The translations under genes and the position numbers were made by a program. A stretch of 64,000 nt of DNA, taken from assembly GCA_016186645.1 (NCBI GenBank), contig JACPLF010000005.1, forward strand, positions 109,995-173,994, read 5' to 3'. How positions within the stretch are numbered: position 1 is the first letter of the stretch; every line of letters begins with the position of its first letter. The stretch is from Candidatus Levyibacteriota bacterium. GTDB lineage: Bacteria > Patescibacteriota > Microgenomatia > Levybacterales > UBA12049. Shown one piece after another: positions 446 to 62,059 of this stretch. The notes under the pieces were generated by a model. The model was not told the origin of the DNA and did not search any database. It saw only the letters and a program-made list of their open reading frames with translations.

Positions 446-782
446 TTTTAGTCGCGTTAAAATACTCTGTATTCATGCAATCGCAGCAATATACGGGAAA
501 TAATAAATTAACTAGTGAGTCTAGGGGCATCAGCCTCGTGGCCTATTGAAATTGTAAATCATCACAAATTTTACAATTGCTCAAATTGTGATGATTATTT
601 CCACGTAGCTGAAATGATAAATGTTGGTTTTAAATTCTGAATTAGTTTCAATGTTTCAAAACATTTAAGTAAGTTCAGATTTAGTCTTCCCTAAAGGCTA
701 ATAACTTGACGGCACAAGTTTTTTTCAGACCAAAAGGGAAGAGATGGGGTAGGTTTGGATCTTTTGAAATGGGAGCTTCTTA

Positions 783-890
783 ATCTCTTGAGCTTGACGT
801 TTTGAATTCTTGAAATCAAGATATCAAAAAGTCAAAATCAAAGACGTCCCACTTCCAACTTCAAGGATTCTAACTTTTACTTCTTGACAT
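783..890. repeat. Intergenic palindromic element, copy A (tcttga/tcaaga word type)
   Basis: Homologous to 1800..1921. It ends with the motif cttccaacttcaaggattcta. Confidence 0.6.
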
Positions 891-1796: not shown

Positions 1797-1799
1797 TAT

Positions 1800-1921
1800 T
1801 CTTGAAGTTAGATCTTCTTGACGCTCTTGAATTTGACTCCTTGATATTCTTGATTTCTTGAATTCAAGATTTCAAATATTCAAGATCAAAAATCTCTAAC
1901 TTCCAACTTCAAAAATTCTAT
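1800..1921. repeat. Intergenic palindromic element, copy B; it fills the trxA-trxB gap up to the trxB ATG
   Basis: Shares tcttgaNtcaaga words and the 3' terminal motif ctaacttccaacttcaaaaattcta with copy A and with the copies at 11961 and 47747. Confidence 0.6.
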
Positions 1922-2965: not shown

Positions 2966-3166
2966 AATATGTGGGTTTTTTATAGCCTTTTCTTTGCCGA
3001 ATTTTAATTTCTCGGTCATGCTCTTTGGCGCAATTCTACTGGCAATGTGAAATAGCTATTTAACTAAACTAAGCGGTCGCTGCATGTAGTTAAATGTCTG
3101 AACTTCATTCCATTGACTTTCTGATTTAAAGAGTATAAAAATAATTTGTAATTTTATTCAGTCAAT

Positions 3167-3930: not shown

Positions 3931-4630
3931 GTAAATTAACGGCAAAGATAACGGGATCATGATTTAGTAGCTGGTTCTTGGTCTTTCGTTTCAGAAGTTC
4001 TCTGACAAAGACCAGAAACTAGCGACTAAATATTCTGGCTCTTTGACCCTCCTGCGCTAAAAGCTACGGAAGGGTCAATAAGCAAAAACAAACCGTTAAG
4101 GTTAGAGACGGCATCGCCACTCGAAGCTTTAGCGAAGTGTGGCTCTTTGACAAGTGAGGAGAAGCCCTATACAAAGCTTGCTTCGCGTCGGAGGCTTACA
4201 GTCTCGCGCCCGCGAAGTGCGCTTGTACAGGGTAAATTTTTTAATTTTAAAATCTACTCATAATGCCGATAATGAATGCCTAGGAGATTTTGGCCGAGGA
4301 AGGACGCAGACGGCGGCGATACTCGTTGGGGAGGTGCCATCAACCTTTGATCCAGCGGTTTCCGAATGGAGCAATCCACTCGTCTTTGACGAGGAGCCAC
4401 TCATAAAAATATTACCGCAAGGTTTTATATAGTGTTTGGCAGGGTACGGCGCGAACCGAAACATCCAAGTAGCGCCAGGAAAATAAATCATAGACCCCGT
4501 TAGAACTTTGGTAGTAAAACTTGTTACGTTAAGAAAGATTTTGCTAACTTAACTTGAGAAGAGACTTTATTTCCAGAGTTCTAACGGGGTAGAGATTCCG
4601 TTAGTAGCGGCGAGCGAAAGCGGAACAGTC

Positions 4631-4755
4631 TAAAGCGTGCGTAGCACGCAACAGTCAACCAACAACACTTCGCCTTTGGCGAATTTCAACAAACAACAAA
4701 AATTGTTGTGAGTTGTTTGTTGTAAGTTGAAGGTTGCATGCTGCGCATGCGGTTG
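4631..4755 (+). repeat. IVS-like structured insertion in the 23S 5' domain, copy 1
   Basis: About 85 percent identical to 9214..9333. It contains the hairpins gcgtgcgtagcacgc and caacaaacaacaaaaattgttgtgagttgtttgttg. Confidence 0.6.
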
Positions 4756-4938
4756 CAGGGCAGACGATATTCGATGTATTTTTTGTAGCAGAAGGACCCG
4801 GAATGGTCCCCCAAAGAAAGTGAAAGGCTCGTACGCAAAACAAAAAATACCGATAGTTTGTTCCTAAGTACCATGGAGCACGATAAAACTCTGTGGGAAT
4901 CTGGGGCGTCCACGCTCCAAGACTAAATACCAGAATCT

Positions 4939-4977
<39 letters not shown>

Positions 4978-5562
4978 CACCCCGGAAGGGGAATGAAATA
5001 GAACTGAAATTGTCGGCTGACAAGCAGGCAGAGGAACGTAACGCGCAAGCGTGTACGTTCTGATGCCGTGCCTATTGAAGAATGAACCGGTGAGTTATTC
5101 CCTCACTTTCGTCTAAGCCATTAAGTGGCGCAGGCAAAGTGAAAGCAAGCTCTAATTGAGCATTTTTAAAGTGTGGGATTAGACCCGAAGCTGGGTGAGC
5201 TAACCTTGGGCAGGGTGAATCCCGATGAAAATCGGGAGGAGGCCCGAACTCGTGACTGTAGCAATAGTCTGAGATGACCTGAGGTTAGGGGCAATATGCC
5301 AATCGAACCCAGAGATAGCTGGTTCTCCCCGAAATATATTTAGGTATAGCGGTCGCCATGTAGTTGCCTGGGGTAGAGCACTAAATGGTTCGCGGCAACG
5401 CAAGTTGTCGTAACCAATTAAACTCCGAATACAGAGCAACATTGGGCGACTAGTCAGACTGGTCGGGCTAAGCCGATGGGTCAAAAGGGAAACAACCCAG
5501 ACTCCCAATTAAGGTCTCTAAATAAAAGCTAAGTTTAGAAGGAAGTCAAGTTCCATAGACAA

Positions 5563-5593
<31 letters not shown>

Positions 5594-6488
5594 TAAAGAA
5601 AGCGTAACAGCTCACTGGCGGATTGGAATTTGGCGCCCAAAATTTAACGAGGATTAAGCTTTTTACCGAAGTTGGAGGAACGTACACTTTTGCTTTGCAA
5701 AATGTTACGTTCGGTAGGGGAGCGTTCTAAGTGCAGCGAAGTCGTGGTGTAAACCATGGTGGAGTGCTTAGAAGTGAGAATGCCGGTATGAGTAGCGAGT
5801 GTCTGGTGAGAAACCAGGCCGCCGAAAACCCAAGGTTTCCTCCGCAATGTAAATCAGCGGAGGGTTAGTCGGTCCTAAGGGTGTTCCTCTTTGGTCCTAA
5901 GGGTGTTCCTCTTTTGGGGAGTAGCCCGATGGGCAAGTCGTTGAGATTCGACTACAAATTATACATATTCTAAGGGGAAGTCGAAGATAGAAGAATCAAG
6001 GCCAGCTAAGCTGGCTTTAAGTAGTGAAATAGGATGAAATGGTAAATACGTTCATCTGTTTAATTAAGCTACGATGAAAACCCTGAGAGCAATCGAAGGG
6101 TATTTGATCGCTTTTAACTTCCGAGAAATATCCCATTAGTTCCATTCATTTGTGAAAAAATGTATATTTTACCGTACCGACATCCGACACAGGTGGGTTG
6201 GTCGAGAAGACTAAGGCGAACGGGAGAAAGATGGTCAAGGAACTCGGCAATAAATCTGGGCGTAACTTTTGGAGATGCCCTACCAGCTACCATGCGGTAC
6301 CTGGTTGCAACAAAAGATTATTAAGCGACTGTTTATCTAAAACACAGGTCCATGCAAAACTGAAAAGTTAAGTATATGGGCTGAAGCCTGCCCAGTGCTG
6401 GTAAGTCAAAAGTTGAGAATCAGGCTCGCAAGAGTCAAAGTTTTTAACTTAAGCTCCAGTAAACGGCAGCAGTAACTATAAGAAATTG

Positions 6489-7190
6489 TAGTTGTAAAAG
6501 TCGACTAAATGCTGGAAAATCCGTACCGTGATTCTGCTTTACAGAACAAACGGTTGCAGTATCTGACGCTACCATGTATTATGGTAATAATGCGATCAGT
6601 GCGGACAATCAGCAGGAAAGACTTGACGAAGAAAGAGCTAGGATTTTTCCTTGCTGGGTTTGTTGAAGGAGAAGGAAGTTTTAATGTCTCGTTACGGCGC
6701 AAGCCTGACTATAGACTCAAATGGCAAGCGGTAATGAGTTTTAATGTTTCGCAAAAAGACCCTACCTTATTAAAAATTTTAAAGGAGGAGCTAAAATGCG
6801 GAATTATTAAAACACGTAAAAGAGACAATCTATATTCCTTTGATGCAACAAATCCTAAGGATCTAATCCAGAAAGTCATTCCATATTTCAAAAAATATCC
6901 AGTTCAATCTGATTCTAAAAAGAATAATTTTTCTATTTTTTGCAAGATAGCAAAATTAATGGAAAAAGGGGAACACAGAAATTTGGCTGGATTAAGGTTA
7001 ATCCTAAAACTTCGAGAGAAAATAAACATTGGAGCAGGAAGAACAAGGAAATATGATATAGATGATGTTTTTTCTAAGTCAGGAATCCTCAGAGACTATA
7101 CGTCGACGTCCCGCTCAGCGGGACATGATATAGTCCGACCTCATGAACGATCATGAGACTCTGTAATCAATCAGAGTACCGCGATTAGCG
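6489..7190 (+). mobile_element. 23S intron 1, inserted after GTAACTATAA (E. coli ~1917); carries a LAGLIDADG homing endonuclease ORF
   Basis: The exon sequence breaks after gtaactataa and resumes with ctgttctaaggtagcgaa. The intervening sequence encodes the endonuclease. Confidence 0.7.
6509..7156 (+). CDS. LAGLIDADG homing endonuclease (intron-encoded)
   Basis: Contains LAGFVEGEGSF and a second, degenerate motif. The probable start is the ATG at 6590 (MRSVRTISRKDL...). Confidence 0.75.
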   Translation: MLENPYRDSALQNKRLQYLTLPCIMVIMRSVRTISRKDLTKKELGFFLAGFVEGEGSFNVSLRRKPDYRLKWQAVMSFNVSQKDPTLLKILKEELKCGIIKTRKRDNLYSFDATNPKDLIQKVIPYFKKYPVQSDSKKNNFSIFCKIAKLMEKGEHRNLAGLRLILKLREKINIGAGRTRKYDIDDVFSKSGILRDYTSTSRSAGHDIVRPHERS

Positions 7191-7232
7191 GGATAACAAT
7201 GTGAACTGTTCTAAGGTAGCGAAGCCCCTTGT

Positions 7233-7496
7233 CGGGTGATGGAAAAAGCCCGAAAACTGGCTTAAAACGGTGAAGCCCTACCATGTTGCATCGTACAAGA
7301 CGATGTGTAAAAATAGAGGGTGATACCGTGGGTAAGACTTTCTTTTAAAAGAGAGAACCTGTAACGACTTGTCCCGCCAAAGGCGGGACAGAGACATAAT
7401 TTTTATGTCTAATACGCCAGCATTTAGTATAGATTTCATTGGACATTATCTTTCAGGAGATGCCGAAGCCCTATAAAAATCGGGCAGAAGGACAAT
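7233..7496 (+). other. Highly divergent, shortened 23S domain IV/V segment (corresponds to E. coli ~1936-2440)
   Basis: Only loose similarity to the canonical exon sequence. The universally conserved AAGTTCCGACCTGCACGAATGG and GACGGAAAGACCCCGTGAACCTTTACTATA blocks are not found. A weak match (catttagtatagatttcattggacattat) and gtctggtgggcag follow. Confidence 0.4.
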
Positions 7497-7787
7497 GTCT
7501 GGTGGGCAGTTTAACTGGGACGGTTGACTCCTACAATGCAACGGAGTCGTACAAAGGTTGGCTAGCTCCGGATGGAAATCGGAGTGATAGTGCAAAGGCA
7601 TAAGCCAGCTTGACTGCGAGACTTACAAGTCGAGCAGGGACGAAAGTCGGTCTTAGTGATCCTCAGTAGCATAGTGGTATGCTCTGAGCTTAACGGATAA
7701 AAGCTACCCTGGGGATAACAGGCTTATCGCATCCAAGCGTTCACAGCGACGATGCGGTTTGGCACCTCGATGTCGGCTTAACACAAA

Positions 7788-8186
7788 TAGTGTTTGGGCC
7801 CTTCAGTAAATAATTACTGTTGTAAATTTGGCTAATAACGGTGGACTCCTAATTGACTAAGTAAAGTTTCTCAAGTTATGATAAAGTCAATGGACAATAC
7901 CGTGGGAAGTCGCATTTTTCAGAACACTCGGAAGACTCGGTTTTCCAGGAACATCAGAATATCTGGCTATCAGATTGTCTGAGCCTCTGGTTTACTGAGT
8001 AATAATCTGAGTTTTCTGAAATATTGTTGACCCCGTAACGACTGATTCTTTAGCAAACTAAATTGAACCCTTAGTTTGTAATAGATGAGATTCCAGTTTT
8101 TGGAATCATACGCCGAACCCCTCTCTTTTTTCAAAAAAGTGGGGGTGATGATATAGTCTACACTTCTAGTAACAGAAGATTCATGT
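7788..8186 (+). mobile_element. 23S intron 2 (ORF-less), inserted after GATGTCGGCT; it contains repeat R1
   Basis: The exon resumes with catcgcatcctggggg...gggtcgggctgttcgcccgttaaagcggtacgcgagctgggttcagaacgtcgtaagacagt. Confidence 0.65.
7921..8022. repeat. R-family MITE-like element, copy R1 (inside 23S intron 2)
   Basis: Carries the terminal motifs cagaacactcggaagactcgg and ctgagttttctgaaat shared with R2 to R5. Confidence 0.6.
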
Positions 8187-8212
8187 GCATCGCATCCTGG
8201 GGGTGGAGAAGC

Positions 8213-8272
<60 letters not shown>

Positions 8273-8280
8273 AAGACAGT

Positions 8281-9028
8281 AGACCTATAGCGTTAATTAC
8301 GCTATTAAATGAGCTGTCTATAAATCTAGCTATTTGCTGGAAACTCCGAGTATCTTCAACTACTTGACAAATGACTTATCGTAGAGATACGATATCTCTA
8401 TGTCTAGTGATAATGTTGGAAGTGCGGACAATCAGCAGGCAGCTGGGAAAGAAATTTCTAATGAGTATTTAGCAGGATTCACCGATGGTGAAGGGTGTTT
8501 CTATGTGGGATTTGGTAAGAGAAAAGACCTGCCGCTTAAATGGCAAGTAATTACCGAATTTCATGTAAGTCAAAATCCAGGCGGGAAAAATGTTTTGGAA
8601 GAGTTCAGAGAAAGGCTTGGTTGTGGCTATTTAAAGCCCAATCATGCAAAGAGCTTGAAAGACAAAACTTGGATTTTAATTGTGAAAGATAGAAAGGATT
8701 TAAAAGAAAAACTTATTCCTTTTTTTCAGCAACACAGATTGCACACAAGCAAACAAAAAGATTTTGAAATCTTTGTAAAAGTGCTTGAAAAAATTGAAAC
8801 GGGAAAGCATTTAACTAAAGATGGTTTTAAACAAATCGTTGAATTAGTTTTTGCCACTACCAGGGTAACAAATAAAAGATATTCAAAAGAATCACTTCTT
8901 TCCTAGAGCCTCAGAGACTACATGCTAGATGATGCATTGAATAGTGCGTCAAAGATATAGTCCGAACTGCATGGCGACATGTAGAGCGTATCAGAAATGC
9001 TACGTCATTCGTAAGAATGTAACATATT
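8281..9028 (+). mobile_element. 23S intron 3, inserted after GTCGTAAGACAGT (E. coli ~2595); carries a second LAGLIDADG homing endonuclease ORF
   Basis: The exon resumes with cggtctctatccagga...cccctagtacgagaggac. Confidence 0.7.
8400..8906 (+). CDS. LAGLIDADG homing endonuclease (intron-encoded)
   Basis: Contains LAGFTDGEGCFYV. It shares the 19-nt string agtgcggacaatcagcagg with the first endonuclease gene, in a different reading frame. Confidence 0.75.
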   Translation: MSSDNVGSADNQQAAGKEISNEYLAGFTDGEGCFYVGFGKRKDLPLKWQVITEFHVSQNPGGKNVLEEFRERLGCGYLKPNHAKSLKDKTWILIVKDRKDLKEKLIPFFQQHRLHTSKQKDFEIFVKVLEKIETGKHLTKDGFKQIVELVFATTRVTNKRYSKESLLS

Positions 9029-9160
9029 GTCGGTCTCTATCCAGGACAACCGATTGAGATTTGAGGAGATTCGCCCCTAGTACGAGAGGACTGGGATGAG
9101 GAAATCCCTGGTGTGCCAGTTGTTCTTACAAGAGCATCGCTGGGTAACTATATTTCCAAC

Positions 9161-9193
<33 letters not shown>

Positions 9194-9213
9194 GTCTCCA
9201 ATATTAGATCTCT

Positions 9214-9333
9214 AGCGTGCGTAGCACGCAACAGTCAACAATCAACACAGCCGATTCAATCGGCTTTTCAACAGACAACAAAATTGTTGTAAGTTGTTTG
9301 TGGTAAGTTGAAAGTTGCATGCTGCGCATGCAT
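9214..9333 (+). repeat. IVS-like structured insertion in the 23S 3' domain, copy 2
   Basis: Homolog of 4631..4755. Compensatory hairpin changes (cttcgcctttggcgaa versus cagccgattcaatcggct) show it is a structured RNA. Confidence 0.6.
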
Positions 9334-9563
9334 AAGCCCCTTGTAGATCACGAGGTTGATAGGCAGGCAGTGGAAGAACCGCAAGGTTTTAAGCTTACCT
9401 GTACTAATGGTTGAACGAGTAGATTTAAAAATTACCGTGCCCCGCAAAAAGTGCTCTTCGAGCCCGCTACGAATAGTAGCTAAGGCGAAAAGTAAACTTT
9501 GTGGGGTATTCTCCTCACATGTCAGAGAGTCAATTGTACATTGATTTTTGAAGAAAGTAATTC

Positions 9564-10769: not shown

Positions 10770-11960
10770 ATGCAAACTCAATTAACAAGTAACAAGTCAC
10801 AAGTAGCAAGTAGCTCCAAGAAGGCTACTTCCATGGCGGATTTAATGAAGAAAGTGGCAGCCGCTAAAACTCCGTTTATCTCTCCTCACAAAGGCGATAT
10901 GCTCATGGGAACCATTACCAAATTAACATCTGGTGAAATTTTGGTGGATATAAATGCCAAGACAGAAGCTGTTGTTTTGGAAAAAGAAAGGCAGATTCTT
11001 AATAAAATTCTTTCCTCTTTCAAAGTAGGGGACAAGATTCAAGTTCAGGTTCTCAATCCTGAATCGGATTTTGGTTATCCGGTTGTATCTCTCAGACGAT
11101 CAGTCGGAGATATTACTTGGGATAGGCTTAGCAAATTACAAAAAGCTCAGGAGGCAGTTGAAGTAACTTTGGATATGGCAACCAAAGGCGGATTTTTAGC
11201 AACCACAACAGATGGAATTTCCGGATTTTTGCCAAATTCCCACACCTCAAGTCTTGAAAATCCCCAAGGATTGATTGGTAAAAAAATAAAAGTTGTAGTT
11301 CTGGAAACAAATCGCGAACTTAACAAGATTATCTTTTCCCAAAAACAAGTCATGGGTCCGGCAGACTTTCAGAAGCTAATTAAGAATCTAAAGGTTGGAC
11401 AAAAAATTGATGCAGTTGTATCCAATGTGGCCCCATTTGGTGTGTTTCTTTCTATCCCAGTTGACCCCGAAGGATCTTCCCGTTCGCCTTCAGGTACTAT
11501 TCGTACACGGCTCACGGAGCGATCTAACGGGGCAGGCTCAGGAAAATTGGCAGAGGGATTTATTCATATTTCTGAAACATCATGGGGAAATGTAGAAAAT
11601 ATTTCAAACCTTTTCAAAATCGGAGACAAAATTACCGGAGTTGTTTTAGGTTTTGACAAAGATTCGAGACGCGTAAATCTTTCTATAAAAAGAACAGTGG
11701 CTGATCCTCTTGAGAAGAAATTTGATGAATTTACAATTGACAAAAAACTCAAAGCAACAATTATCAAAGTTATCTCAACAGGTGTGATTTTGGACCTCGG
11801 AGACAATGTAAATGGATTTATTAAAAAAGAAAAAATTCCGGTTAAAATAACTTACAAAGACGGACAAGAGATTGACGTTACAGTATCCTCAGTTGATAAG
11901 AAAAGACATAGAGTTGAAGTCTCCCCAGTCCTCACGGCGAAGCCGATTGGATATAGATAG
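10770..11960 (+). CDS. rpsA: 30S ribosomal protein S1 (short CPR-type, S1-domain repeats)
   Basis: Several S1-fold repeats (GDKIQVQVLNPE..., ITGVVLGFDKDSRRVNLSIKR). SD-like aaaggtga and a TGTGGTACAAT -10 box lie upstream. Confidence 0.7.
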   Translation: MQTQLTSNKSQVASSSKKATSMADLMKKVAAAKTPFISPHKGDMLMGTITKLTSGEILVDINAKTEAVVLEKERQILNKILSSFKVGDKIQVQVLNPESDFGYPVVSLRRSVGDITWDRLSKLQKAQEAVEVTLDMATKGGFLATTTDGISGFLPNSHTSSLENPQGLIGKKIKVVVLETNRELNKIIFSQKQVMGPADFQKLIKNLKVGQKIDAVVSNVAPFGVFLSIPVDPEGSSRSPSGTIRTRLTERSNGAGSGKLAEGFIHISETSWGNVENISNLFKIGDKITGVVLGFDKDSRRVNLSIKRTVADPLEKKFDEFTIDKKLKATIIKVISTGVILDLGDNVNGFIKKEKIPVKITYKDGQEIDVTVSSVDKKRHRVEVSPVLTAKPIGYR

Positions 11961-12083
11961 AATAGACGGTAGATGATAGAATGTAGAAGATAGTAATTGA
12001 AGATGGAAAATAGAAAGTAGAAAACTATCCTCTAACTTCTATTTTCAAAATTCTACCATCAATCTTCTATTTTCTATCGTCAT
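11961..12083. repeat. Intergenic palindromic element, copy C (tagaa/ttcta word type); it fills the rpsA-radA gap up to the radA ATG
   Basis: Homologous along its length to 47747..47873. Its arms are mutually reverse-complementary. It ends with the motif ctaacttctattttcaaaattctacc. Confidence 0.65.
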
Positions 12084-13583
12084 ATGAAATCAAAGGTTTC
12101 ATTTGTCTGTCAGGAATGCGGTTATGATTCTCCCCAGTGGCTTGGAAAATGTCCTGAATGCGGAATGTGGAACAGTTTAAAAGAAATTTCCCACTTCGTT
12201 GAAACTTCGCGGGACAAGCAAAATTCAATAGGAAATATCAATAAAAATATAACGCCGAAAAGACTTTCGGAAATAAAGTTTGAGAGAAAACAAAGATTAT
12301 TAACAGGGTTTTCGGAATTGGATACTGTTTTGGGCGGGGGAATTGTGAAGGGAAGCGCAGTTTTACTTGCCGGTGATCCGGGCATTGGTAAGTCAACTCT
12401 GTTATTGCAGCTGGCGTTAAATTTAGCATCAACCTCTTCTCAGAAAACTCAGAATACTCAGCATATCAGAAAATCTGATAATCAGAAGCTCAGACAGTCT
12501 GGCTTACTGAGTTTTCCGAGTGTTCCGAATGTTTTATATATTTCCGGGGAAGAGTCTGAAGAACAAGTCAAATTAAGAGCAGATAGAATTAATCCTTCGG
12601 CTCGCTCAGGATCCAAAACTCATTCAAATTTATTACTTCTCTCAAATACAAATACTGATTTGGTTTGTGGAATAATTGTTAAAGTTAAACCAATGCTTGT
12701 GATTATAGATTCAATCCAAACAATGGAATCGGAAAATGTTTCCGGTCTTTCCGGGTCTGTTGGGCAGGTTCGTTATTCTGCTTTTCAATTTATAAAAATC
12801 GCCAAAACATTTGGGATTCCAATTATTATGGTAGGTCATGTAACAAAAGAAGGAATGGTTGCCGGACCTATGGTTTTATCCCACATGGTTGACACTGTTT
12901 TATTTTTGGAGGGAGAAAAATTTACCGCAACCAGAATTTTGAGAAGTCTGAAAAATAGATTTGGTCCGGTTGACGAAGTTGGAATTTTTGCAATGGAAGG
13001 TGTTGGGGTAAAAGAATTAAACAGTCCCGAACAACTTTTTTTATCAAAACACAATGATAAGACTATTTCAGGAAGTATTTTATCTGTCACCATGGAAGGT
13101 ACAAGAGCATTCTTAATTGAAATTCAAGCACTTGTTTTGTCATCGAAAATTCCAATTCCAAGAAGAGTTGCATCCGGCATTGATTACAAAAGATTGGAAC
13201 TTTTATTGGCGGTTTTGCAAAAACATTGTAATATCCCGCTTTCGGGAATGGATGTTTTTGTAAATGTGATAGGTGGAATAAAACTTTCAGATCCGGCAAC
13301 TGATTTGGCAATTTGCCTTGCGATTATATCGAGTTTCAAAAATATTAATTTATCCCAAAAAGTTGGGATTGGAGAAGTAGGGCTTTTGGGAGAGCTTCGT
13401 AAAGCCAGTTCTTTGGAAAAACGCATAAAAGACGCGCGAAAATTGGGGTTTCGCGATATAATAAGTTCGGACAAATTCAAGACTTTAAAACAAGTTGTTA
13501 ATAGTTTAAGCAATGACCCTCCTTCATTAAAATTACGGAAGGGTCATGCCTCGAAGCTTGAGAAAGAGGCAGAAGGTAATTAA
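12084..13583 (+). CDS. radA: DNA repair protein RadA/Sms
   Basis: N-terminal C4 zinc ribbon, Walker A GDPGIGKST, the KNRFG motif and a Lon-like C-terminal domain. Confidence 0.9.
   Translation: MKSKVSFVCQECGYDSPQWLGKCPECGMWNSLKEISHFVETSRDKQNSIGNINKNITPKRLSEIKFERKQRLLTGFSELDTVLGGGIVKGSAVLLAGDPGIGKSTLLLQLALNLASTSSQKTQNTQHIRKSDNQKLRQSGLLSFPSVPNVLYISGEESEEQVKLRADRINPSARSGSKTHSNLLLLSNTNTDLVCGIIVKVKPMLVIIDSIQTMESENVSGLSGSVGQVRYSAFQFIKIAKTFGIPIIMVGHVTKEGMVAGPMVLSHMVDTVLFLEGEKFTATRILRSLKNRFGPVDEVGIFAMEGVGVKELNSPEQLFLSKHNDKTISGSILSVTMEGTRAFLIEIQALVLSSKIPIPRRVASGIDYKRLELLLAVLQKHCNIPLSGMDVFVNVIGGIKLSDPATDLAICLAIISSFKNINLSQKVGIGEVGLLGELRKASSLEKRIKDARKLGFRDIISSDKFKTLKQVVNSLSNDPPSLKLRKGHASKLEKEAEGN
12441..12532. 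repeat. R-family element, copy R4, inserted in-frame in radA (encodes ~33 extra aa, STSSQKTQNTQHIRKSDNQKLRQSGLLSFPSVPN)
   Basis: Nearly identical to the reverse complement of R3 (cagaaaactcagaatactcag ... tactgagttttccgagtgttccgaa). The insertion sits between Walker A and the downstream RadA core, where other bacteria have none. Confidence 0.65.
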
Positions 13584-18876: not shown

Positions 18877-18986
18877 ATCTTAACTTTATTATAAACTTTT
18901 TTGTCTTTTTGTCAAGCAATGAATTTTTTAGGCCATTTACATTTGTAGGCATTTAACCATTAACAGCGATCGCAGTGTCCAGTTAA

Positions 18987-19322
18987 ATGGCTGGAGAGAC
19001 TGGTGGAGAAATAAACAAAAAAACTACTATACTTTTTGCAGCCATGCTGCATAATACAATTATGAAGAAACAAACAGCGCATTTTCAAGTTATCAATAGG
19101 GGAATTGTTTTTTATTTTACAAAAGAGCCTAAAGGAGGATATGCAGTAGTTGTTCCTTCCTTACCAGGATGTGTTTCATATGGTAAAAATTTTGAGGAGG
19201 CAATGAGAATGATAAAAGATGCTATGCAAGGCTATTTGGCAATCGTAAAAGAAGAAGGACTTTTAATTCCCCAAGAAATAGAAGAAAATAAAGGAAATGC
19301 GGGCTTTGGTCTTGCCTTCTAA
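18987..19322 (+). CDS. hicB: HicB-family antitoxin (UPF0150)
   Basis: GGYAVVVPSLPGCVSYGKNFEEAMRMIKDAMQGYL matches the HicB fold. The true start may be the internal ATG at about 19064. Confidence 0.6.
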   Translation: MAGETGGEINKKTTILFAAMLHNTIMKKQTAHFQVINRGIVFYFTKEPKGGYAVVVPSLPGCVSYGKNFEEAMRMIKDAMQGYLAIVKEEGLLIPQEIEENKGNAGFGLAF

Positions 19323-19429: not shown

Positions 19430-19599
19430 TCAAATTTATCTCCCAAACAACTCTTCTTACCAAAAGAACTTTTGCCGAGAAACTAGGCATTTGCAGAGTT
19501 TACCTAGATGCTAAGGAAATTGTAGATTGATTTATATCAAACGAAGAATTCCTCGAGAGTCTGGGAAAAGGCTAATTACAGAGAATTAAGATTTACGAT

Positions 19600-19974
19600 T
19601 TAAGAATTAAGAATAGATTTTGTCTTCTGAATAAACCCTTGTAATAATTGATGAGTAAAATTTGCCTGTTTAACTAGATCATCTAAGTCTTTTTTGTTGA
19701 GATATCCCACACCTCTAGCAATAAGAATAAAATTCTTAAGTTCTGTTAATGATCCTTGAGCAGTAAAATAAAATTGAAGTTTTTCTTTATATGAATGTCT
19801 GCCAAAACCCTCTGCGATATTTGCTGTTATTGATGCCGCCGATCTTCTCATCTGATCGATCAAAGAATACATCTCTTGTTTCGGAAAGCCTTGTGTAATT
19901 TTATAAACAAGCAGTACTAATTTATGGCCTTCCTGCCAGACTTTCAAGTCTGTAAAAGACTTAATAGTGCTCAT
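19600..19974 (-). CDS. Four-helix-bundle protein (23S rRNA IVS protein / S23-like family)
   Basis: DLKVWQ...QMRRSAASITANIAEGFGR...AQGSLTEL matches the family signature. It is flanked by inverted 'gatttaagaat' repeats. Confidence 0.7.
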   Translation of the reverse strand: MSTIKSFTDLKVWQEGHKLVLLVYKITQGFPKQEMYSLIDQMRRSAASITANIAEGFGRHSYKEKLQFYFTAQGSLTELKNFILIARGVGYLNKKDLDDLVKQANFTHQLLQGFIQKTKSILNS

Positions 19975-20054
19975 TCTTAAATCTTACATCATAATTCTTA
20001 AATCTCCAAAAAGTTGCTTTTTGGATCCCTTTTTGCTACCATTTTTTCTCAACC

Positions 20055-21330: not shown

Positions 21331-21434
21331 AGGAAAATGAAAAGTTCAAAATGCAAAATTAAAAATTGCAATTCAAAACTTAAAATTTTGGACTATAGCT
21401 TTTCACTTTTAATTTTGAATTTTAAATTTATTCT

Positions 21435-25464: not shown

Positions 25465-28400
25465 TTAGTTCACAATAAGCCAGTTGAAAGGGATTGGGTT
25501 TTTGTTGGGGGATTGGACGCCGACAGTAAACTCCGCAGGTAATTGGCGCATTAAAAATGGCGATTGAGCGCTGGGCGTTCCCACAGGAGTTATATAAATG
25601 ACTGACTCGTTGGTTACAAGAGCGTTTTTGATAGTAAGTTCTGCGTAATAGGGAGCGATATTAGCAACCCCTGCTGAAGAACTTGCTATTGCCTCTGTTG
25701 CAGAAACAGCCAATACAGGCTGGACAAGGCTGAAGTTAAGTTTTGCAAAAGTACCGGAACCTGAGGAAATTAAATCGCCCTTTTGATTTATAGATAAAAC
25801 ACCAGACCCGCTTGCATTATTTACAACCAGATCTGAAGTCGGGAGAGGAGAAATAATATTTACAGCAAGTTTGCCTAAAACAGTTAAATCTCCTTGAGTC
25901 GAAATATTTCCGTGGGTATCAATATAAACAAGTCCTCCCATAATTGAAAGTCCGCCTTGCCTTAAGCTTTGCAAAGATAAATCAGTTCCTAATGTTTCTA
26001 TAGAATTTTGCGTAATAAACATTGTTCCTCCTATTGAAATATTTCCTACGACTGAAAGATCGGATAGAGATGTTGATCCAAATACCATAAGTCCTTGATT
26101 GAAAAGTGCCTGTTCTGCTTGAAGATTAGGTACATAAGCAATTTGAGCCGAGAAAGATGCGACATCTATGTAGTTAGATGAGAGATGAGATGTTAGAAAT
26201 GAAAAAGCTCTTAATGTGCCGCTTATTGATGCATTTTCAAACTGACCGTCAAGAGCTGATAACTGACCGCTGAATGATGCATCGCCTTCATTATTAATAG
26301 TAGTGATTGCAGAGCCGCTTGAGTTTTGAATTATGAATTGTGAATCATGAATCTCTGCCGATGGTGTTGCCAATTTGACGATTAATGATTTACCTAGAGG
26401 TGAAATAATATTGGCTGAGACCTGATCAGTTCTTATAATCGGAGAAATTATTCCTGCTTGCCCCCCGAAGTCTTGACGAAGGGGGGATTCTTGAATCACG
26501 TCAACAATATAATCCCTTAGATTCTGGCCGTTAACTATTATATTATCCGAGGTAACAATCAGTGAGTTTGCAATTATTTCTTGAGCGTTAAGAAGGCCGG
26601 TTTTAATATTAGCAGCTACAACTTTAAAAAATCCTCCGACATTACTTAAAGTTTCATTTTGAGAATCAACAGAATAGCCATTGGATCCTGTTTTATGAAT
26701 AATCAGGTCGCCATTATTAGCTAAATACGCGCCCGGATCAAACCAGGAGATATTTGCAAAAGTATTGATCTTTACAATCTTAATGATGTTTGGTTTTAAC
26801 GGAACATTAGGAAAGCCATCCTTGCTTCTATACTCTTTGCTATCAGGATCATAGAAGCCTACTACTTTTCCCTCATCTATAATGTCTAAATTTTCCAAAG
26901 CCTTTCCGACAATTTGTCCTGCTTTTGTTGCTTTTACTGCTACTCCGGGGATATCAGATGATGCTAACGCATCGCCGGCTTTAATCGTTCCGTTAGAGAT
27001 AGAGACGAGAGTATCAACTTGTCCGATAAGACCAACTGCTATTGAGCTATCACCAAGATTTTCTCCTCCCAGAAATGCTGGTCGCTCGGATGCAATACCC
27101 AAAATTTTACCATTATTATTATCACATGGAACAACAAAGCCATTATTTAGACAGACAACAGAGCCAAATTCTATTTTTAGATATTTATCTTTTTTGAAGT
27201 ATTCAGCAAAGTCAGCGACACCGGATGTTGCATAAGTCACGCCTTTCCCGCCACTTCCTTGAATAGATCCGACAATTCCAATTCCTGCTGTTTGAAAGCT
27301 CACAAAGTGATTTGTGCTGGCAACTGCGGTAGTTGAAGTATTGCCCAGTTTTATAACAAGACCATCCGCATCTGTTCCAGAACTTGTATTGTAAATTTGA
27401 GCAGCAGCGGTTGCTGATTGAGAATCTTGAATGTCTAGTTTTGATAATGGTGTCGTTGTTCCAATTCCTACGTTTCCCGTATTGATCCATGAATTATTTC
27501 CGCTAGTTCCGCTAAACTTAATCAAAGCAGAAGAAGTAGCAGTTGCTCCTAGTAGGATATCATCTGATATATTGGTTGGGCTGAGCGCAGCCGAAGCCCT
27601 TTGCCACGGTCCAAATGTTCCTGTTGAGGCAGAATATATGTTGTCAATATAAGCATTGTCCCAAGGCAGAGAAGCAGACCCTAGATTATTGGTTCCGCTT
27701 GTTCCGATCGGAACAAGACTTGAATCTTGTGCGACTCGACCGGTGAAGGTAATAGTGTCAGTGGCTGCATCTCCCAGCGTAACGCTTCCCTGTATATTGG
27801 CTGTTGCATTTCTTATAGTTATGGTGCCTGTTGACGCTCCAAGAACGAGTGTTGTTGCTGCTCCTCCAACATTTAAGGTAGTAACAGTTGAATTCAGAAG
27901 GTTGAAAGTTGTGGCTGTACTTGTCATATCTCCGCCGTTTATTCCAAGATCTCCGGCAAACAATCCAGCCCCATCGCTTTCAACACCAAATTTGGCAATA
28001 CCGGATGTACTGGCGCTAATCAGACTCCCTATTGAATTCTGATTGATATGAAAGGCTGATTGTGCACTTGTTGTTGCCAGTATAGCCACGTTATCATCGA
28101 ACTCTACCGCCCCTTTCATAAATGATACGTTGCTATTGTTTGTGCTATTCTGAATGGGTTTTGAAAGATCTATTTTTCCGACACCATCAGGCACGATTTC
28201 CACCCTGCTATTACTGCCTGGGACTGTTGTCAAAGACAATATGCTTCCGGAAAGCACGAATTGGCCGCCGATGGTCTGAAAAGTGTGCGCTTTTGAGCCT
28301 GCAATGCTAAGATTGCCCGAGGAATCCAAAGCCAAGACGACATTACTTACTTTGGTTGAATTTGTGATGGGTTCAAGTCCTTGTAATGTTTCAGCATTAC

Positions 28401-29892
28401 TTGCAAAAGGCACTGTAGCCAACTCTTGACGCGGACTAAGCTCTGGACCGCTCCCAATAGTAATTCCCAAGAAAAGCTGCGAATTCTGGCTAAAAAGAGT
28501 ATCAGGAATAGGGGTAGTCTTGCCAAGAAACACTGAGAATATCCCATCTGAATCAGGTTCTATCGAGTTGCTTTCCTGCCAAAGAAAGGCCGCACCTGAA
28601 GCATTTTGGTCATTATAGATAGAAAAGAGAATATTTGTCGCATTGGTTATAGGATTATCAGATGAGTCGGTCAGTTTTCCCTGAAAAGAAAGAATTCGGG
28701 GGGGAGCAAATGAAGCTGCAGCAAGTGTCGCTCCTTCTTTTTGGCTTTGTGCAAAAAGACTATCATATGTTCCAAAACCAAGCGCTGCAGCTACGATAAT
28801 AAGGATCGCAAAATGGAAATAATGGGTAAATGAGTATGAGTGATACTTTTTGTACCAGTTGGGTCGTACATGCCGAATATAATGCCAGACTCTTTTGTGG
28901 TTTGGTAAATAGCGTGTTGAAACGGTGAGGGGGGCATAAAACTCCTTCTTAATATTTGAAACCGGAATTAATGACTCAGAGTCAAATTTGGATTTCTTGA
29001 ATACTCTTTTTCCCGATGCTTTCCAAAATAAATACTGTGTACTCTCAACAGTTTTGACAAGCGGCAATATAAAGATGGCATCAAAGAGGAAATCAGCGCC
29101 ATTTATGAGCTTTTGCGTTAATCTCAGAGGTGGAAAAGAAGATCTGTTCGGAATACTCGGAAGACTCGGTGCGTCAGATTGCTCGCCTCGCTCAAGCTTC
29201 GGCGAAGAGGGTCTTATTATCTGATAGTCAGAATTTCTGATGGTCTGGATTTCGGAGTCTTCTGAGTTTTCTGAAATTAATTTCTGGTTTTTTGCCCAAG
29301 CAATATAATTCCTTAAAGACGAAAGTTTTCTATTGATAGTCCTGGGAGAAAATTTAGCCGCAATTAGTCTTTGCTTGTATTCTTCAATGGTTGTGTAATT
29401 GACTTTGTCTAGTAAATTTCTTTCCGTGACAACCCATGCGTATTTGATAAGCGTTACTTCCTCAAGCCACACGAAGAAACTTTTGATATCGTTGATGTAG
29501 TTTTTTATAGTAAGATTAGATTTTTTATACTCGTAAAGATAGCTTTTGAAATTCCTAAGCATCCATGGATCCGCCTCCGCCAAGGCTTCGGCGGACACAG
29601 TCCTTTTTTCAAGTGGATCTTGTGAGATTATTTTGTTTGTTTGGAGCAACTTAAAAAACTTACGCAAAGAGGAAAAATGTCTCTCCATGGAGCTTGGAGA
29701 AAGACTCCTTGCTTTTTTGTACTGATCTAAGATGACAAGGTTAACTTTTGATGGATCAAAAGGGGAATTAAATTCTTTTTCGAACCAGTTTATAAATTGT
29801 CCGATATCAGCTTTATAATTTTTGAAAGTAGAAAGAGATGGTGTATCTTTTTGATTTATCAGGAAATTAAGGAATTGTTGTAATAAATTCAT
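25465..29892 (-). CDS. Giant (1475 aa) cell-surface protein: N-terminal integrase-SAM-like repeats, one TM helix, then a long Ser/Thr/Gly/Asn-rich extracellular region
   Basis: Three core-binding-like repeats (FKNYKADIGQFINWF / IKNYINDIKSFFVWL / INRKLSSLRNYIAWA). TM helix HYFHFAILIIVAAALGFGTY. No recombinase catalytic domain. Confidence 0.6.
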   Translation of the reverse strand: MNLLQQFLNFLINQKDTPSLSTFKNYKADIGQFINWFEKEFNSPFDPSKVNLVILDQYKKARSLSPSSMERHFSSLRKFFKLLQTNKIISQDPLEKRTVSAEALAEADPWMLRNFKSYLYEYKKSNLTIKNYINDIKSFFVWLEEVTLIKYAWVVTERNLLDKVNYTTIEEYKQRLIAAKFSPRTINRKLSSLRNYIAWAKNQKLISENSEDSEIQTIRNSDYQIIRPSSPKLERGEQSDAPSLPSIPNRSSFPPLRLTQKLINGADFLFDAIFILPLVKTVESTQYLFWKASGKRVFKKSKFDSESLIPVSNIKKEFYAPLTVSTRYLPNHKRVWHYIRHVRPNWYKKYHSYSFTHYFHFAILIIVAAALGFGTYDSLFAQSQKEGATLAAASFAPPRILSFQGKLTDSSDNPITNATNILFSIYNDQNASGAAFLWQESNSIEPDSDGIFSVFLGKTTPIPDTLFSQNSQLFLGITIGSGPELSPRQELATVPFASNAETLQGLEPITNSTKVSNVVLALDSSGNLSIAGSKAHTFQTIGGQFVLSGSILSLTTVPGSNSRVEIVPDGVGKIDLSKPIQNSTNNSNVSFMKGAVEFDDNVAILATTSAQSAFHINQNSIGSLISASTSGIAKFGVESDGAGLFAGDLGINGGDMTSTATTFNLLNSTVTTLNVGGAATTLVLGASTGTITIRNATANIQGSVTLGDAATDTITFTGRVAQDSSLVPIGTSGTNNLGSASLPWDNAYIDNIYSASTGTFGPWQRASAALSPTNISDDILLGATATSSALIKFSGTSGNNSWINTGNVGIGTTTPLSKLDIQDSQSATAAAQIYNTSSGTDADGLVIKLGNTSTTAVASTNHFVSFQTAGIGIVGSIQGSGGKGVTYATSGVADFAEYFKKDKYLKIEFGSVVCLNNGFVVPCDNNNGKILGIASERPAFLGGENLGDSSIAVGLIGQVDTLVSISNGTIKAGDALASSDIPGVAVKATKAGQIVGKALENLDIIDEGKVVGFYDPDSKEYRSKDGFPNVPLKPNIIKIVKINTFANISWFDPGAYLANNGDLIIHKTGSNGYSVDSQNETLSNVGGFFKVVAANIKTGLLNAQEIIANSLIVTSDNIIVNGQNLRDYIVDVIQESPLRQDFGGQAGIISPIIRTDQVSANIISPLGKSLIVKLATPSAEIHDSQFIIQNSSGSAITTINNEGDASFSGQLSALDGQFENASISGTLRAFSFLTSHLSSNYIDVASFSAQIAYVPNLQAEQALFNQGLMVFGSTSLSDLSVVGNISIGGTMFITQNSIETLGTDLSLQSLRQGGLSIMGGLVYIDTHGNISTQGDLTVLGKLAVNIISPLPTSDLVVNNASGSGVLSINQKGDLISSGSGTFAKLNFSLVQPVLAVSATEAIASSSAGVANIAPYYAELTIKNALVTNESVIYITPVGTPSAQSPFLMRQLPAEFTVGVQSPNKNPIPFNWLIVN
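29146..29278. repeat. R-family element, copy R2, in-frame within the giant surface-protein gene (encodes a low-complexity linker)
   Basis: Carries gttcggaatactcggaagactcgg ... tctgagttttctgaaatt. Confidence 0.6.
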
Positions 29893-33343: not shown

Positions 33344-33521
33344 AAAACAGAAATTATCACCCTAACACCTAGAACATCTTAGAAATACTACTGGGACGGT
33401 CTTCGGTTTTATAATTAAGTTTTTCACCATTTTACCTTCGGATACATTTAAATCCCAAAAGAACTGTGTTATACTAAATAAAATTTCTAATTACTAATTT
33501 CTAATTTCTAAATAAATCCAA

Positions 33522-42717: not shown

Positions 42718-42839
42718 ATTAGCGTCTAGTTATCAGCGTCTAGCGTCTAGTTTTCGGCAACTGAACGCTGAAGGCTAGTTGCTGAACGCTAATTAAAGGC
42801 TATCAGTTGCGAAAGAAGTTGTCAATACTAAAAAATGAA

Positions 42840-43746: not shown

Positions 43747-45504
43747 ATGTTAAATGTTAGGCAGCAAGTTGCTTTTGATCTAAGAAGAGTACTTAAAAAT
43801 CTGGTTTCGCCGGATCGAGATATTATTCCTCAGCTTGAGCATCCGATGGATGAGAAACATGGCGATTATGCGTCGAATATTGCCCTAGCAATATTCTCCA
43901 GTTCAAAGTTCCCCTCCTCGGTGGGCAGGCAAGTTCAAAGTTCAAAGTTTGGGTCGCCGATGGAATTGGCAGAGGAAATTGTAAAAAAACTCAATAGTTC
44001 AAGCGCAACTTTGCCAAATATTGCCAAAGTTGAAGCAGTAAAACCAGGCTTCATCAATTTCTATTTATCTCAAAATTATCTAATCACTCTAATGATACAT
44101 ATCATTAGAGTGTCGGAGGGGTATGGAGCCTCAGAAAAGCTGAAAAATAAGAAAATAATGGTTGAGTTTACGGATCCCAATCCATTTAAAGAATTTCATA
44201 TCGGTCATTTGTACAGCAATACAGTGGGAGAATCCATAAGCCGAATGCTGGAAGCCTTGGGCGCAAATGTAAAAAGAGCAAATTATCAGGGAGATGTTGG
44301 AATGCATGTTGCAAAAGCAATTTATGGAATCCAAAATTTAGAAATAAAAATTGAAGATTTAGAAAAAAAATCTTTGAAAGAAAAAATTAAAATTTTGGGA
44401 GAGGCATATGCAAATGGTTCAAAAAAATATGAAGACGATGAAAATGTAAAGAAAGAAATCGAAGAATTGAACAAGAAAATATATGACAAAGAGCCTGATG
44501 TAACGGCACTTTACGAAAAAGGCAGGCAATGGAGTTTGGAATATTTCGAAGAGATATATAAACGCCTTGGAACCAAATTCGACTTCTATTATTTTGAGTC
44601 GGAAGTTGGAAGAGATGGATTAAAATTAGTAAAAGAATATTTAAAAAAAGGCATTTTTGAGGAAAGCCTTGGCGCAGTAATATTTCCTGGTGAAAAATAT
44701 GGATTGCACGACAGGGTATTTATAAATTCGCTTGGACTTCCGACATATGAAGCAAAAGAGTTAGGTCTTGCATTAAAAAAATATCAAGATTTTAAGTTCG
44801 ATCAATCAATAGTTGTAACGGGAAATGAAATTATTGGTTATTTCAAGGTCATACTTGTTGCTTTGGGAGAAATAAATCCTGAGCTGGCAACCAAAACGAA
44901 GCATCTATCTCATGGAATGGTCAGGCTTCCAACCGGAAAAATGTCTAGTAGGACTGGAAATATTTTAACAGGAGAATGGCTTTTGGATGAAGCAAAAAGC
45001 CTCTTAAAAGGGAAGTTTAATGAAATGGAAGAAGATATTTTGGAAAAAGTTACAGTTGGGTCTATAAAATACGCGCTTTTGAAAAGCAGTCTTGGTCGTG
45101 ATATTGAGTTTGATTTTGAAGAATCAATAAATATTCAAGGCAATTCTGGGCCTTATTTGCAGTATACATTTGCTCGGACGCAAAGCGTCCTTGCTAAAGC
45201 AGAAAAAGATTTAAGATTTAAGATTAAAGATTTAAGAATAGAACCGGAAGAAATATCTCTGCTAAGAACATTGAGTCGTTTTCAGGAGATTGTAGAAGAG
45301 GCAGCTAATAAATTTGCGCCGAATCTTTTGTGCAATTATCTTTTTGATCTGGCCCAAAAGTTTAATTTATTCTACCAGAGGCGCAAGATTCTTGGGGAGA
45401 TTGGAGATATTAGGGATTTTAGGATTGCCTTAACAAAAGCAGTGGGACAGGTTATCAAAAACGGTCTCCATTTGCTGGGGATTGACTCTCCGGAGAAGAT
45501 GTAG
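43747..45504 (+). CDS. argS: Arginine--tRNA ligase
   Basis: FHIGHLYS (HIGH) and a DALR-type anticodon-binding C-terminus. A TGTGGTACAAT -10 box immediately upstream suggests leaderless translation from the ATG at 43747. Confidence 0.85.
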   Translation: MLNVRQQVAFDLRRVLKNLVSPDRDIIPQLEHPMDEKHGDYASNIALAIFSSSKFPSSVGRQVQSSKFGSPMELAEEIVKKLNSSSATLPNIAKVEAVKPGFINFYLSQNYLITLMIHIIRVSEGYGASEKLKNKKIMVEFTDPNPFKEFHIGHLYSNTVGESISRMLEALGANVKRANYQGDVGMHVAKAIYGIQNLEIKIEDLEKKSLKEKIKILGEAYANGSKKYEDDENVKKEIEELNKKIYDKEPDVTALYEKGRQWSLEYFEEIYKRLGTKFDFYYFESEVGRDGLKLVKEYLKKGIFEESLGAVIFPGEKYGLHDRVFINSLGLPTYEAKELGLALKKYQDFKFDQSIVVTGNEIIGYFKVILVALGEINPELATKTKHLSHGMVRLPTGKMSSRTGNILTGEWLLDEAKSLLKGKFNEMEEDILEKVTVGSIKYALLKSSLGRDIEFDFEESINIQGNSGPYLQYTFARTQSVLAKAEKDLRFKIKDLRIEPEEISLLRTLSRFQEIVEEAANKFAPNLLCNYLFDLAQKFNLFYQRRKILGEIGDIRDFRIALTKAVGQVIKNGLHLLGIDSPEKM

Positions 45505-53521: not shown

Positions 53522-53523
53522 CT

Positions 53524-61951: not shown

Positions 61952-62059
61952 CACAATTCAGAATCTAGAATTCAAAATCTACTCAAGCTAAAGAGATAAG
62001 TTTAGGCATTTAATCATTGACCGCGGCCGCTTGATATGGTTAAATAAATTTATTTTATT

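Follow-up and report, generated by a model that had tools for sequence, protein, structure and literature searches.

Repetitive extragenic palindromic (REP) sequences span 20-40 nt, are usually rich in GC, lie outside genes and are associated with the RAYT (Y1) transposase, and mycobacterial interspersed repetitive units (MIRUs) are small repeats of operon intercistronic spacers, built from direct tandem units with small open reading frames (ORFs), whose ends adjoin stop and start codons. REPINs consist of inverted doublets, fold into long hairpins and act as mobile units (PMC3116915). [quoted passage not shown] The Rickettsia palindromic elements (RPEs) form several palindromic families within a reduced genome and are found in intergenic regions, in RNA genes and in-frame in proteins, where each family adds a conserved peptide (PMC10969869). 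Here we characterize a set of long palindromes, built from 7- to 8-nt words, in a 64-kb stretch (hereafter the window) of a Candidatus Levybacteria genome of the candidate phyla radiation (CPR). Four of them lie upstream of relB/dinJ-like, trxB, radA and ndk genes, and we consider it probable that these loci belong to two related families of insertion elements that are small, non-coding, non-autonomous and palindromic (foldback) and that are common in Levybacteria. Members of the families are scattered among many unrelated loci and species, and they occupy stop-to-start operon spacers, in-frame sites in housekeeping proteins and the spacers of rRNA and tRNA genes.

We labeled the palindromes by their words, with A1 and A2 for the TCTTGA type, B1 and B2 for the TAGAA type and C1 to C4 for a TCAGA type (Table 1). 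As RNA, each of the four loci folds into one long imperfect hairpin (minimum free energies, MFE, are -40.2 kcal/mol for B1, -37.5 kcal/mol for B2, -28.9 kcal/mol for A1 and -29.0 kcal/mol for A2), with z-scores of -3.7 to -5.8 against dinucleotide shuffles. An independent palindrome scan recovered the same four loci, in agreement with the long imperfect palindromes of a preliminary description, except that A1 begins about 30 nt before the position 783 proposed there, since the scan places its start at 753. The word-built structure is likewise borne out by autocorrelation: the TAGAA copies have a strict 7-nt period (lag-7 autocorrelation of 0.55-0.59; background 0.27, 99th percentile 0.45) and the TCTTGA copies a looser period of about 8 nt. 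Alignments within each type reveal clear homology (z=19.8 for A1-A2 and z=31.8 for B1-B2). The loci had been described as four copies of two types; the homology within types stands, but the count was too low, as repeat and palindrome scans found about 20 word-built palindromes or arrays of more types in the window (TCAGA, AGCGTCT, AAAATGA, AGATTTA, AAAGGAG and others). The neighboring genes had been named correctly: Pfam identifies a RelB/DinJ-like protein at A1, thioredoxin and TrxB at A2, an S1-domain protein and RadA at B1, and an M16 peptidase and NDK at B2.

We gathered the TAGAA family by one pattern scan of metagenome contigs (GACGATAGANNNTAGA, 75-105 nt, TCTATCGTC). The scan returned 86 contigs, compared to a chance expectation of about 2 by our own rough estimate, which was not computed by a tool, and these yielded 54 true family copies, 46 of them distinct. 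The family's 118-nt consensus forms a near-perfect palindrome, in which two arrays of a degenerate GATAGAA-like heptad stand in inverted orientation; its layout is GACGATAGA, the heptads, a TTTTGAAG/CTTCAAA landmark and a final TCTATCGTC. Because the two word arrays are inverted, either strand can fold into an imperfect hairpin of about 50 bp. Across the 46 copies, T.GA / TC.A is invariant every 7 nt while the bases between vary; the two ends and the central TTTTGAAG/CTTCAAA are the non-periodic landmarks. The ends GACGATAGA and TCTATCGTC are inverted to each other and form terminal inverted repeats, as in MITEs, though part of their conservation in the metagenome set is due to the ends being in the search pattern. 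In the window copy B1, the end sequence is GACGGTAGA.

The setting of 29 of these copies could be classified, and 26 of them are flanked by co-directional genes. The stop codon on the upstream side falls between -15 and +4 nt from the left end in 16 of the 26, and the downstream ATG is most often 7 nt past the right end. The junctions include trx-trxB, map-infA, tuf-rpsJ, secE-nusG, secD-secF and gap-pgk. An ORF runs through 15 copies, 10 of which are in-frame inside long ORFs, and the hosts on the metagenome contigs include transketolase (two sites), LepA, an RNase HII-like protein and a WecG-like protein. These in-frame copies encode a conserved peptide, TIDDRK..VEDRKSKIE..SSIINPQPLSSIINRLSS. 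Both window copies are intergenic. The TCTTGA and TCAGA families are also present in other species.

We found that the same junction is occupied differently in close relatives (L-numbers are our labels of comparison loci from relatives and control phyla). The S1-radA spacer measures 3-6 nt in some species and holds a word-built palindrome of 60-150 nt in more than half, and its word type varies from species to species; the AGCGTCT type, for example, occupies it in L008 and L058. Three metagenomic relatives whose RadA is 85-87% identical to that of the window carry three other word types, and four genomes with RadA at least 85% identical carry four different types. The window's own TAGAA type recurs, as orthologous copies of B1, in four genomes (L020, L022, L025 and L027) whose RadA is 64-68% identical. 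Of the 25 RadA pairs that are closest, no more than two or three have a spacer type in common, while several distant pairs share one strongly. In these comparisons, the occupant of the spacer is uncoupled from host relatedness as measured by RadA identity. The window RadA is itself 100% identical to a protein of a Levybacteria metagenome-assembled genome.

The other junctions behave similarly. The M16-ndk junction is empty in L174 (TAA-AT-ATG) and holds three different other palindrome types in L175-L177, with NDK of the compared relatives being 88-92% identical; two further ndk contigs are identical to the window and carry no comparative information. The trx-trxB junction has the TCTTGA type in the window and the TAGAA type in L088 and L131 (TrxB 70-75% identical). 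In the presence/absence comparison suggested as a check in the preliminary description, the two TAGAA junctions of the window are either empty (2-6 nt) or filled by another palindrome type in close relatives.

A second kind of site lies within radA itself, where the TCAGA copy C2 is placed between the Walker A helix and the VLYISGEES strand. In an alignment of 28 Levybacteria RadA proteins, many homologues have a few residues at this point and the remaining ones have inserts of 20-55 residues from at least five unrelated sequence families. Among 58 species-representative Levybacteria genomes, 21 have a loop insert of 19-79 residues, from several unrelated families. Several of the inserts that were checked at the DNA level are word-built palindromes themselves. 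An AlphaFold2 model of RadA, weak overall (mean pLDDT 57.5), has the insert (aa 119-146) as coil with pLDDT <50, between a helix (103-120) and a strand (150-154).

Several steps would account for this distribution. The elements would spread by insertion through some mobilizing activity, with frequent insertion or replacement and fast turnover, and would survive only at permissive, harmless sites. Within an mRNA, a foldback insert would bring the upstream stop codon and the downstream start codon back together, and it may be tolerated because this folding restores their proximity. Such proximity would preserve coupling between termination and reinitiation in genes that lack a Shine-Dalgarno sequence. 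Within a structured RNA the insert would be extruded as a helix, and within a protein, where the frame is open, it would form a surface loop. Effects on expression, such as cleavage by RNase III or a shielded 3' end on the upstream cistron, would be of secondary importance.

Several observations weigh against insertion elements. No mobilizing gene was identified in the 64-kb window. The one transposase encoded in the window, an IS4/IS5-like DDE_Tnp_1 (49006-49896), has inverted ends GGTGCAAAAC / GTTTTGCACC and a repeated GGGTTACTTTT, and we rejected it as the mobilizer because its GGTGCAAAAC-type ends, by reading of the sequence, are unlike the element ends. The presence of many families in a small genome is hard to fit with one transposase per family. 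Neither a target-site duplication nor a conserved flank was found in 28 oriented TAGAA copies. Copies are found within highly expressed essential operons (tuf-rpsJ, secE-nusG), from which a selfish insert might be purged, and the maintenance of the TAGAA consensus across hosts with RadA 64-68% identical could equally reflect functional selection. The source genome was read over the 64-kb window, and copy counts for it are limited accordingly. Finally, Watson-Crick pairing within the TAGAA family is 66% in register; a shift of 7 nt lowers it to 57%, and out of phase it is about 35%. Since pairing in register and after the shift differ so little, much of the 'palindrome' is word complementarity, which slippage could create.

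In an alternative, the palindromes are not mobile and instead grow in place, by heptamer slippage combined with template switching or fold-back priming, with concerted evolution of the arms shifting the word type. Besides the near-equal pairing after a 7-nt shift, the alternative fits the differing word types of very close relatives, the end of the S1 gene (GATATAGATAG), which resembles the adjacent TAGA words, and the occurrence of word-built palindromes in unrelated phyla; moreover, according to the summary of Mrazek 2007 given in PMC4679880, in most of the prokaryotic genomes examined no long simple repeats are more common than heptanucleotide ones. It is difficult to reconcile with the landmarks. 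Unlinked loci and species share non-periodic features (the ends and the TTTTGAAG/CTTCAAA center) at 75-82% identity, the TAGAA family is present at no fewer than 19 different junctions and in five different proteins, and the likeness of spacers from distant hosts exceeds that from close hosts. Slippage and template switching may feed the system, yet they cannot explain landmarks common to loci and species, and growth in place as the sole origin appears improbable.

The main rival is a functional intercistronic RNA hairpin, acting as an RNase III or other processing site or as a 3' stabilizer, which would uncouple or adjust the output of neighboring cistrons, or as a bridge between stop and start codons that lets ribosomes reinitiate on genes without a Shine-Dalgarno sequence, with its families kept because they are recognized by a host factor. 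The stable folds at the four loci, the co-directional setting of 26/29 copies with the hairpin base a few nt from stop and start, the classic operon junctions and the consensus kept at 64-68% RadA identity are all consistent with it. By reading of the flanks, short gaps after an element lack a Shine-Dalgarno sequence, and gaps of at least 24 nt have one. There is also a precedent, as Correia-containing transcripts are cut by RNase III (PMC10969869). Such a function predicts selection for pairing in the RNA, which would favor G.U over A.C mismatches on the sense strand. The two are balanced instead, at 200:211 in 72 Levybacteria palindromes between co-directional genes and at 215:221 within the TAGAA family, where only about half of the copies can be oriented to a flanking gene; we see no sign of selection for RNA pairing in these counts. 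We turned to them and to the register shift because covariation was uninformative: RNAalifold gave no consensus structure for 46 TAGAA copies, and six orthologous copies contain only 4 pairs with compensatory changes. A search of Rfam gave no match at the gathering threshold and, far below it, only generic long-hairpin miRNA precursors. At the invariant positions it is the word (T.GA/TC.A per 7 nt), rather than the base pair, that is conserved.

Location argues in the same direction. The same families are found in coding sequences and between convergent genes, orthologous junctions in close relatives are empty or hold unrelated families, and a separate TATAAT promoter follows the palindrome in some species and not in others. 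We consider it unlikely that a host function in the mRNA accounts for the families. RNase III processing of a long hairpin in a polycistronic mRNA, one of the roles suggested earlier, may occur, with no pairing selection visible. Beyond the elements, many genes have a TATAAT 3-10 nt before the ATG and no Shine-Dalgarno sequence (16035 and 57292 in the window; L003-L007, L011, L038, L042 and L046), which suggests leaderless or near-leaderless mRNAs in these Levybacteria.

A broader proposal joins mobility with function, and we give it little credence. The heptad foldback class would be widespread in Levybacteria and possibly in the CPR, would spread through hairpin or single-stranded intermediates without a classical transposase, possibly aided by PF05635 four-helix-bundle proteins, whose genes are framed by such arms too, and would have been co-opted as RNA bridges. 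Ribosomes that finish translation at the 5' base of a stem would then reinitiate at a start codon on its 3' base, a bacterial parallel to ribosome shunting that would replace Shine-Dalgarno-dependent coupling in essential operons. In core proteins, the elements would also give rise to new surface loops.

The invariance of T.GA / TC.A alone within each 7 bp, which is conservation of sequence rather than of pairing, could also arise if the arrays were DNA-level iterons bound by a ribbon-helix-helix or nucleoid-associated protein and served as operators or chromosome-organizing sites. Arrays of direct and inverted 7-bp repeats are the binding sites of the omega repressor of plasmid pSM19035, and one window copy lies upstream of a gene of the RelB family, whose members are ribbon-helix-helix proteins. 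Many unrelated word types would, however, require many cognate proteins in a small genome, and the copies are situated in operons and coding sequences, not at promoters. Downstream of the element, the relB-like gene also has a palindromic operator-like sequence and a promoter of its own: its ATG is at 921, and a TTGACA-N17-TACACT promoter (10/12 match) lies at 884-912, past A1. We judge DNA-level iterons very improbable.

The preliminary description also raised the possibilities of a promoter cassette, of attenuation and of a REP/BIME-like element. A promoter cassette or an intrinsic terminator, carried by a 3' core common to the four loci, could be read into the ndk copy (TTCAAA-N18-TATCAT, 9/12) and the radA copy (TTCAAA-N18-TATTTT), and Correia elements do carry promoters (PMC10969869). 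The number of sigma-70-like matches at the four loci is nevertheless at chance level (2-6 found compared to 1.4-3.9 expected from shuffles), and no terminator-like site, defined as a GC-rich stem followed by a U tract, was found there, which also removes the support for attenuation by intrinsic termination. In the trxB copy, the -10 box would lie within the coding sequence. The promoters of this genome and its relatives consist of TTGACA or CTTCA, N17-18 and TATAAT near the ATG, outside the palindromes. A promoter or terminator role is thus hardly credible, the least so of the explanations considered here. The REP/BIME-like option came closest, in that the elements are dispersed over many loci and species; in size, AT-richness and intragenic copies they differ from REPs.

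The shared 3' core of the original proposal is weakly supported. Cross-type alignment against shuffled controls, the check put forward with it, was marginal: one of four pairs was clearly above shuffles (A2-B1, z=5.3, p=0.003), a second was less so (A2-B2, p=0.034), and A1-B1 and A1-B2 were not significant. A profile built from 48 TAGAA-type copies matched the A2 tail at E=5 only, and we rejected cross-type homology on that route; the 20-nt core pattern is present in two TAGAA copies only. The core ends 6 nt (trxB), 28 nt (radA) and 34 nt (ndk) before the ATG by reading of the sequence, within the proposed range of 5-40 nt, while the distance at the relB/dinJ-like gene is 44 nt. Homologues of the TCTTGA type in three other genomes (L026, L025 and L103) offer a different account. 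In these, the presumed core, CTAACTTCCAACTTCAAAAATTCTA, belongs to a larger palindrome as its outer right arm, with TAGAATTTTTGAAGTTGGA as the left partner, and in A2 this left partner is truncated at the trx stop codon. The outer arms are composed of TAGAA-like words, which may be why the types show their weak likeness, judging from few sequences. On this limited set, the TCTTGA family has the look of a TAGAA-like palindrome with a TCTTGA palindrome nested inside it, the composite having spread afterwards. By comparison, the alignments give only marginal support to one family joined through a 3' core.

Further palindromes of the window are listed with the four loci in Table 1. Four copies of the TCAGA type lie in the spacer of convergent genes, in the 23S region and, twice, in-frame in coding sequence; C4 has an MFE of -43.6 kcal/mol over 101 nt. 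Word-built palindromes, for example of GGCTACTGGCT words, are also found in control loci of Gemmatimonadales, Clostridia and Magasanikiibacteriota, and consequently the architecture is not confined to Levybacteria. Generic palindrome density does not discriminate between the two sets (1.85 per 10 kb in Levybacteria and 1.29 in the control loci of other phyla).

Table 1. Word-built palindromes of the window and of control loci (strand '.', none assigned; fold z against dinucleotide shuffles)
Feature	Position	Strand	Core or inner palindrome	Setting	Evidence
B1, TAGAA/GATAGAA-heptad palindrome	11961-12083	.	core 11965-12081	entire spacer, S1-domain gene stop (11958-11960) to radA ATG (12084)	profile E=3e-25; fold z -5.75; 7-nt period; palindrome scan 11972-12081
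B2, TAGAA type	47747-47873	.	core 47750-47866	spacer, M16 peptidase gene end (47746) to ndk ATG (47874)	profile E ~3e-25; fold z -4.76; palindrome scan 47736-47874
A2, composite TCTTGA type	1797-1921	+	inner TCTTGA/TCAAGA hairpin 1804-1903	trx-trxB spacer	fold z -3.68; palindrome scan 1804-1903
A1, TCTTGA type	753-880	+	palindrome 753-874	noncoding, upstream of relB/dinJ-like gene	fold z -4.17; palindrome scan 753-874
C1, TCAGA type	7914-8024	+		interrupted 23S rRNA region, between Rfam 23S fragments	profile E=2e-26
C2, TCAGA type	12436-12532	+		in-frame in radA, ~aa 117-149	profile E=1e-22
C3, TCAGA type	29143-29283	-		in-frame in 1475-aa ORF 25465-29892 (minus)	profile E=1.7e-22
C4, TCAGA type	53522-53622	.		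spacer of convergent sortase and PEGA-domain genes (Pfam)	profile E=2.6e-27
AGCGTCT-word palindrome	42718-42800	-		adjoins ATG (42717, minus) of response-regulator gene	
AAAATGA-word palindrome	21331-21434	.		spacer of two tRNA-Ala genes	7-nt autocorrelation 0.62
AAAGGAG-word palindrome	50225-50348	-		wholly inside uninterrupted ORF 50057-50572 (minus), PF05635-like	
AGATTTAAGATT-word inverted arms	19566-19614, 19973-20022	.		around PF05635 gene 19603-19974 (minus)	
Control palindromes, L082	14803-14947, 17267-17386				
Control palindrome, L070	20804-20908				
Control palindromes, L075	1623-1754, 18503-18623				

Two of the listed features concern genes of the PF05635 family (23S rRNA intervening-sequence protein, IVP). 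The AGATTTAAGATT-word arms frame one such gene exactly (19566-20022; weak bAvd-like match), and the unit resembles a palindromic element whose loop holds a gene. The ORF that contains the AAAGGAG-word palindrome is a second and longer PF05635-like ORF of 172 aa. We dropped a general association between PF05635 genes and word-built arms, as there was a single informative case in all the DNA examined. The 23S rRNA gene (4263-9340) is split by large insertions, so that Rfam recognizes only model positions 15-2044 and 2097-2466. Two LAGLIDADG endonuclease proteins among the window ORFs are provisionally attributed to 6509-7156 and 8400-8906, within the 23S insertions. A 52-nt segment of GTTGTTTGTTG words occurs twice, at 4699-4750 and 9280-9331 (94% identical), and a relative in inverted orientation lies at 52989-53023.

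Words of the same kind appear in two aminoacyl-tRNA synthetase genes. A 36-nt segment of AGATTTAAGATT words lies in-frame in LeuRS (34347-34382) and ArgRS (45207-45242), encodes FKIKDLRI in both and is 86-89% identical to the reference copy at 19582-19617. LeuRS has an AAAATGA-word segment near its C-terminus (36077-36130), and at its N-terminus (33540-33700) a duplicated motif (YNPSEIEKKW ... YSPSLIESKWQ) surrounds a strongly folding, Arg/Ser-rich insert, which may be another insertion with target duplication. Upstream of this gene, a direct-only AATTTCT heptad array (33470-33521) ends 6 nt before the ATG with no inverted partner nearby and resembles the TAACTGA-type arrays that Beggiatoaceae have upstream of start codons. 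Another, separate family of hairpins, CATTTAAC..GCGATCGC/GCGGCCGC..GTTAAATG, is present at 3050-3098, 18943-18991, 57195-57243, 62000-62048 and 62767-62815, mostly just upstream of genes (an HicB-like antitoxin, PaaX-like proteins and the gene at 57292), and could represent an operator or a further repeat family.

So far, palindromic 'selfish DNA' lying in-frame in essential proteins has been regarded largely as a Rickettsia curiosity. The same behavior in a small-genome CPR lineage suggests that genome reduction, together with hairpin-forming repeats, generally leads to it, and here it involves many families with fast turnover that are also placed at the stop-start junctions of core operons. 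In practice, the elements inflate or fuse ORF calls, explain length variation of conserved CPR proteins such as RadA and could serve as fast-evolving markers for strain typing. If the hairpins do keep translational coupling or direct mRNA processing, they would provide a testable route into the operon expression of organisms that cannot yet be grown alone. Literature searches returned no earlier description of such elements in the CPR.

Compared to known systems, the elements share features with several classes. TIGR-Tas arrays, where TIGR stands for tandem interspaced guide RNA, were the only class of CPR repeats to come up in the literature searches and consist of 36-nt units with edge and loop repeats and two spacers, beside a Nop-domain tas gene (PMC12045711); we ruled them out, as the period here is 7-9 nt, not 36, and the flanking genes are S1/radA, M16/ndk and trx/trxB. 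The 23S rRNA intervening sequences (IVSs), which are insertions in rRNA that form hairpins, and their PF05635 proteins have parallels in the TCAGA palindrome in the interrupted 23S region and by the PF05635 gene with word-built inverted arms, but that gene is free-standing, not in rRNA, and is one case only. With MIRUs, the elements have in common the intercistronic placement next to stop and start codons; MIRUs are not palindromes. Heptanucleotide repeats (cyanobacterial short tandemly repeated repetitive sequences, STRR, and the TAACTGA repeats of Beggiatoaceae, Cyanobacteria and Bacteroidetes) are likewise intergenic arrays of 7-nt units, and the head-to-tail 7-nt units that define the STRR/LSSR type are found in the TAGAA copies. 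Those repeats, however, are direct arrays of one near-exact heptamer, whereas here degenerate heptads are joined to their inverted copy, in many families and as discrete insertions.

Among the palindromic classes, REP/BIME sequences and REPINs are similarly dispersed within operons, while the elements described here are longer (100-150 nt), AT-rich, word-periodic and also intragenic, which sets them apart from REPs. Like Correia/NEMIS, ERIC and other MITEs, they are small, non-autonomous and made of inverted repeats. They differ from MITEs in that no target-site duplication, related autonomous insertion sequence, embedded promoter or IHF site was detected here, and in that the entire element is an inverted repeat rather than a core between terminal repeats. 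In their behavior, the elements are much like RPEs. As with those, we find families of dispersed palindromes of about 100-150 bp that lie in-frame in unrelated proteins and encode a family-specific peptide, a likeness of described behavior rather than of compared sequences; with the host unrelated and the arms built of heptads, homology to the RPE families would not be expected. Unlike RPEs, the hosts belong to an unrelated phylum (CPR), the arms are composed of tandem 7-8-nt words, and most TAGAA copies are located at operon stop-start junctions rather than in coding sequence. The best-supported interpretation is that these palindromes would be non-autonomous, RPE/MITE-like insertion elements whose heptad-array form is new.

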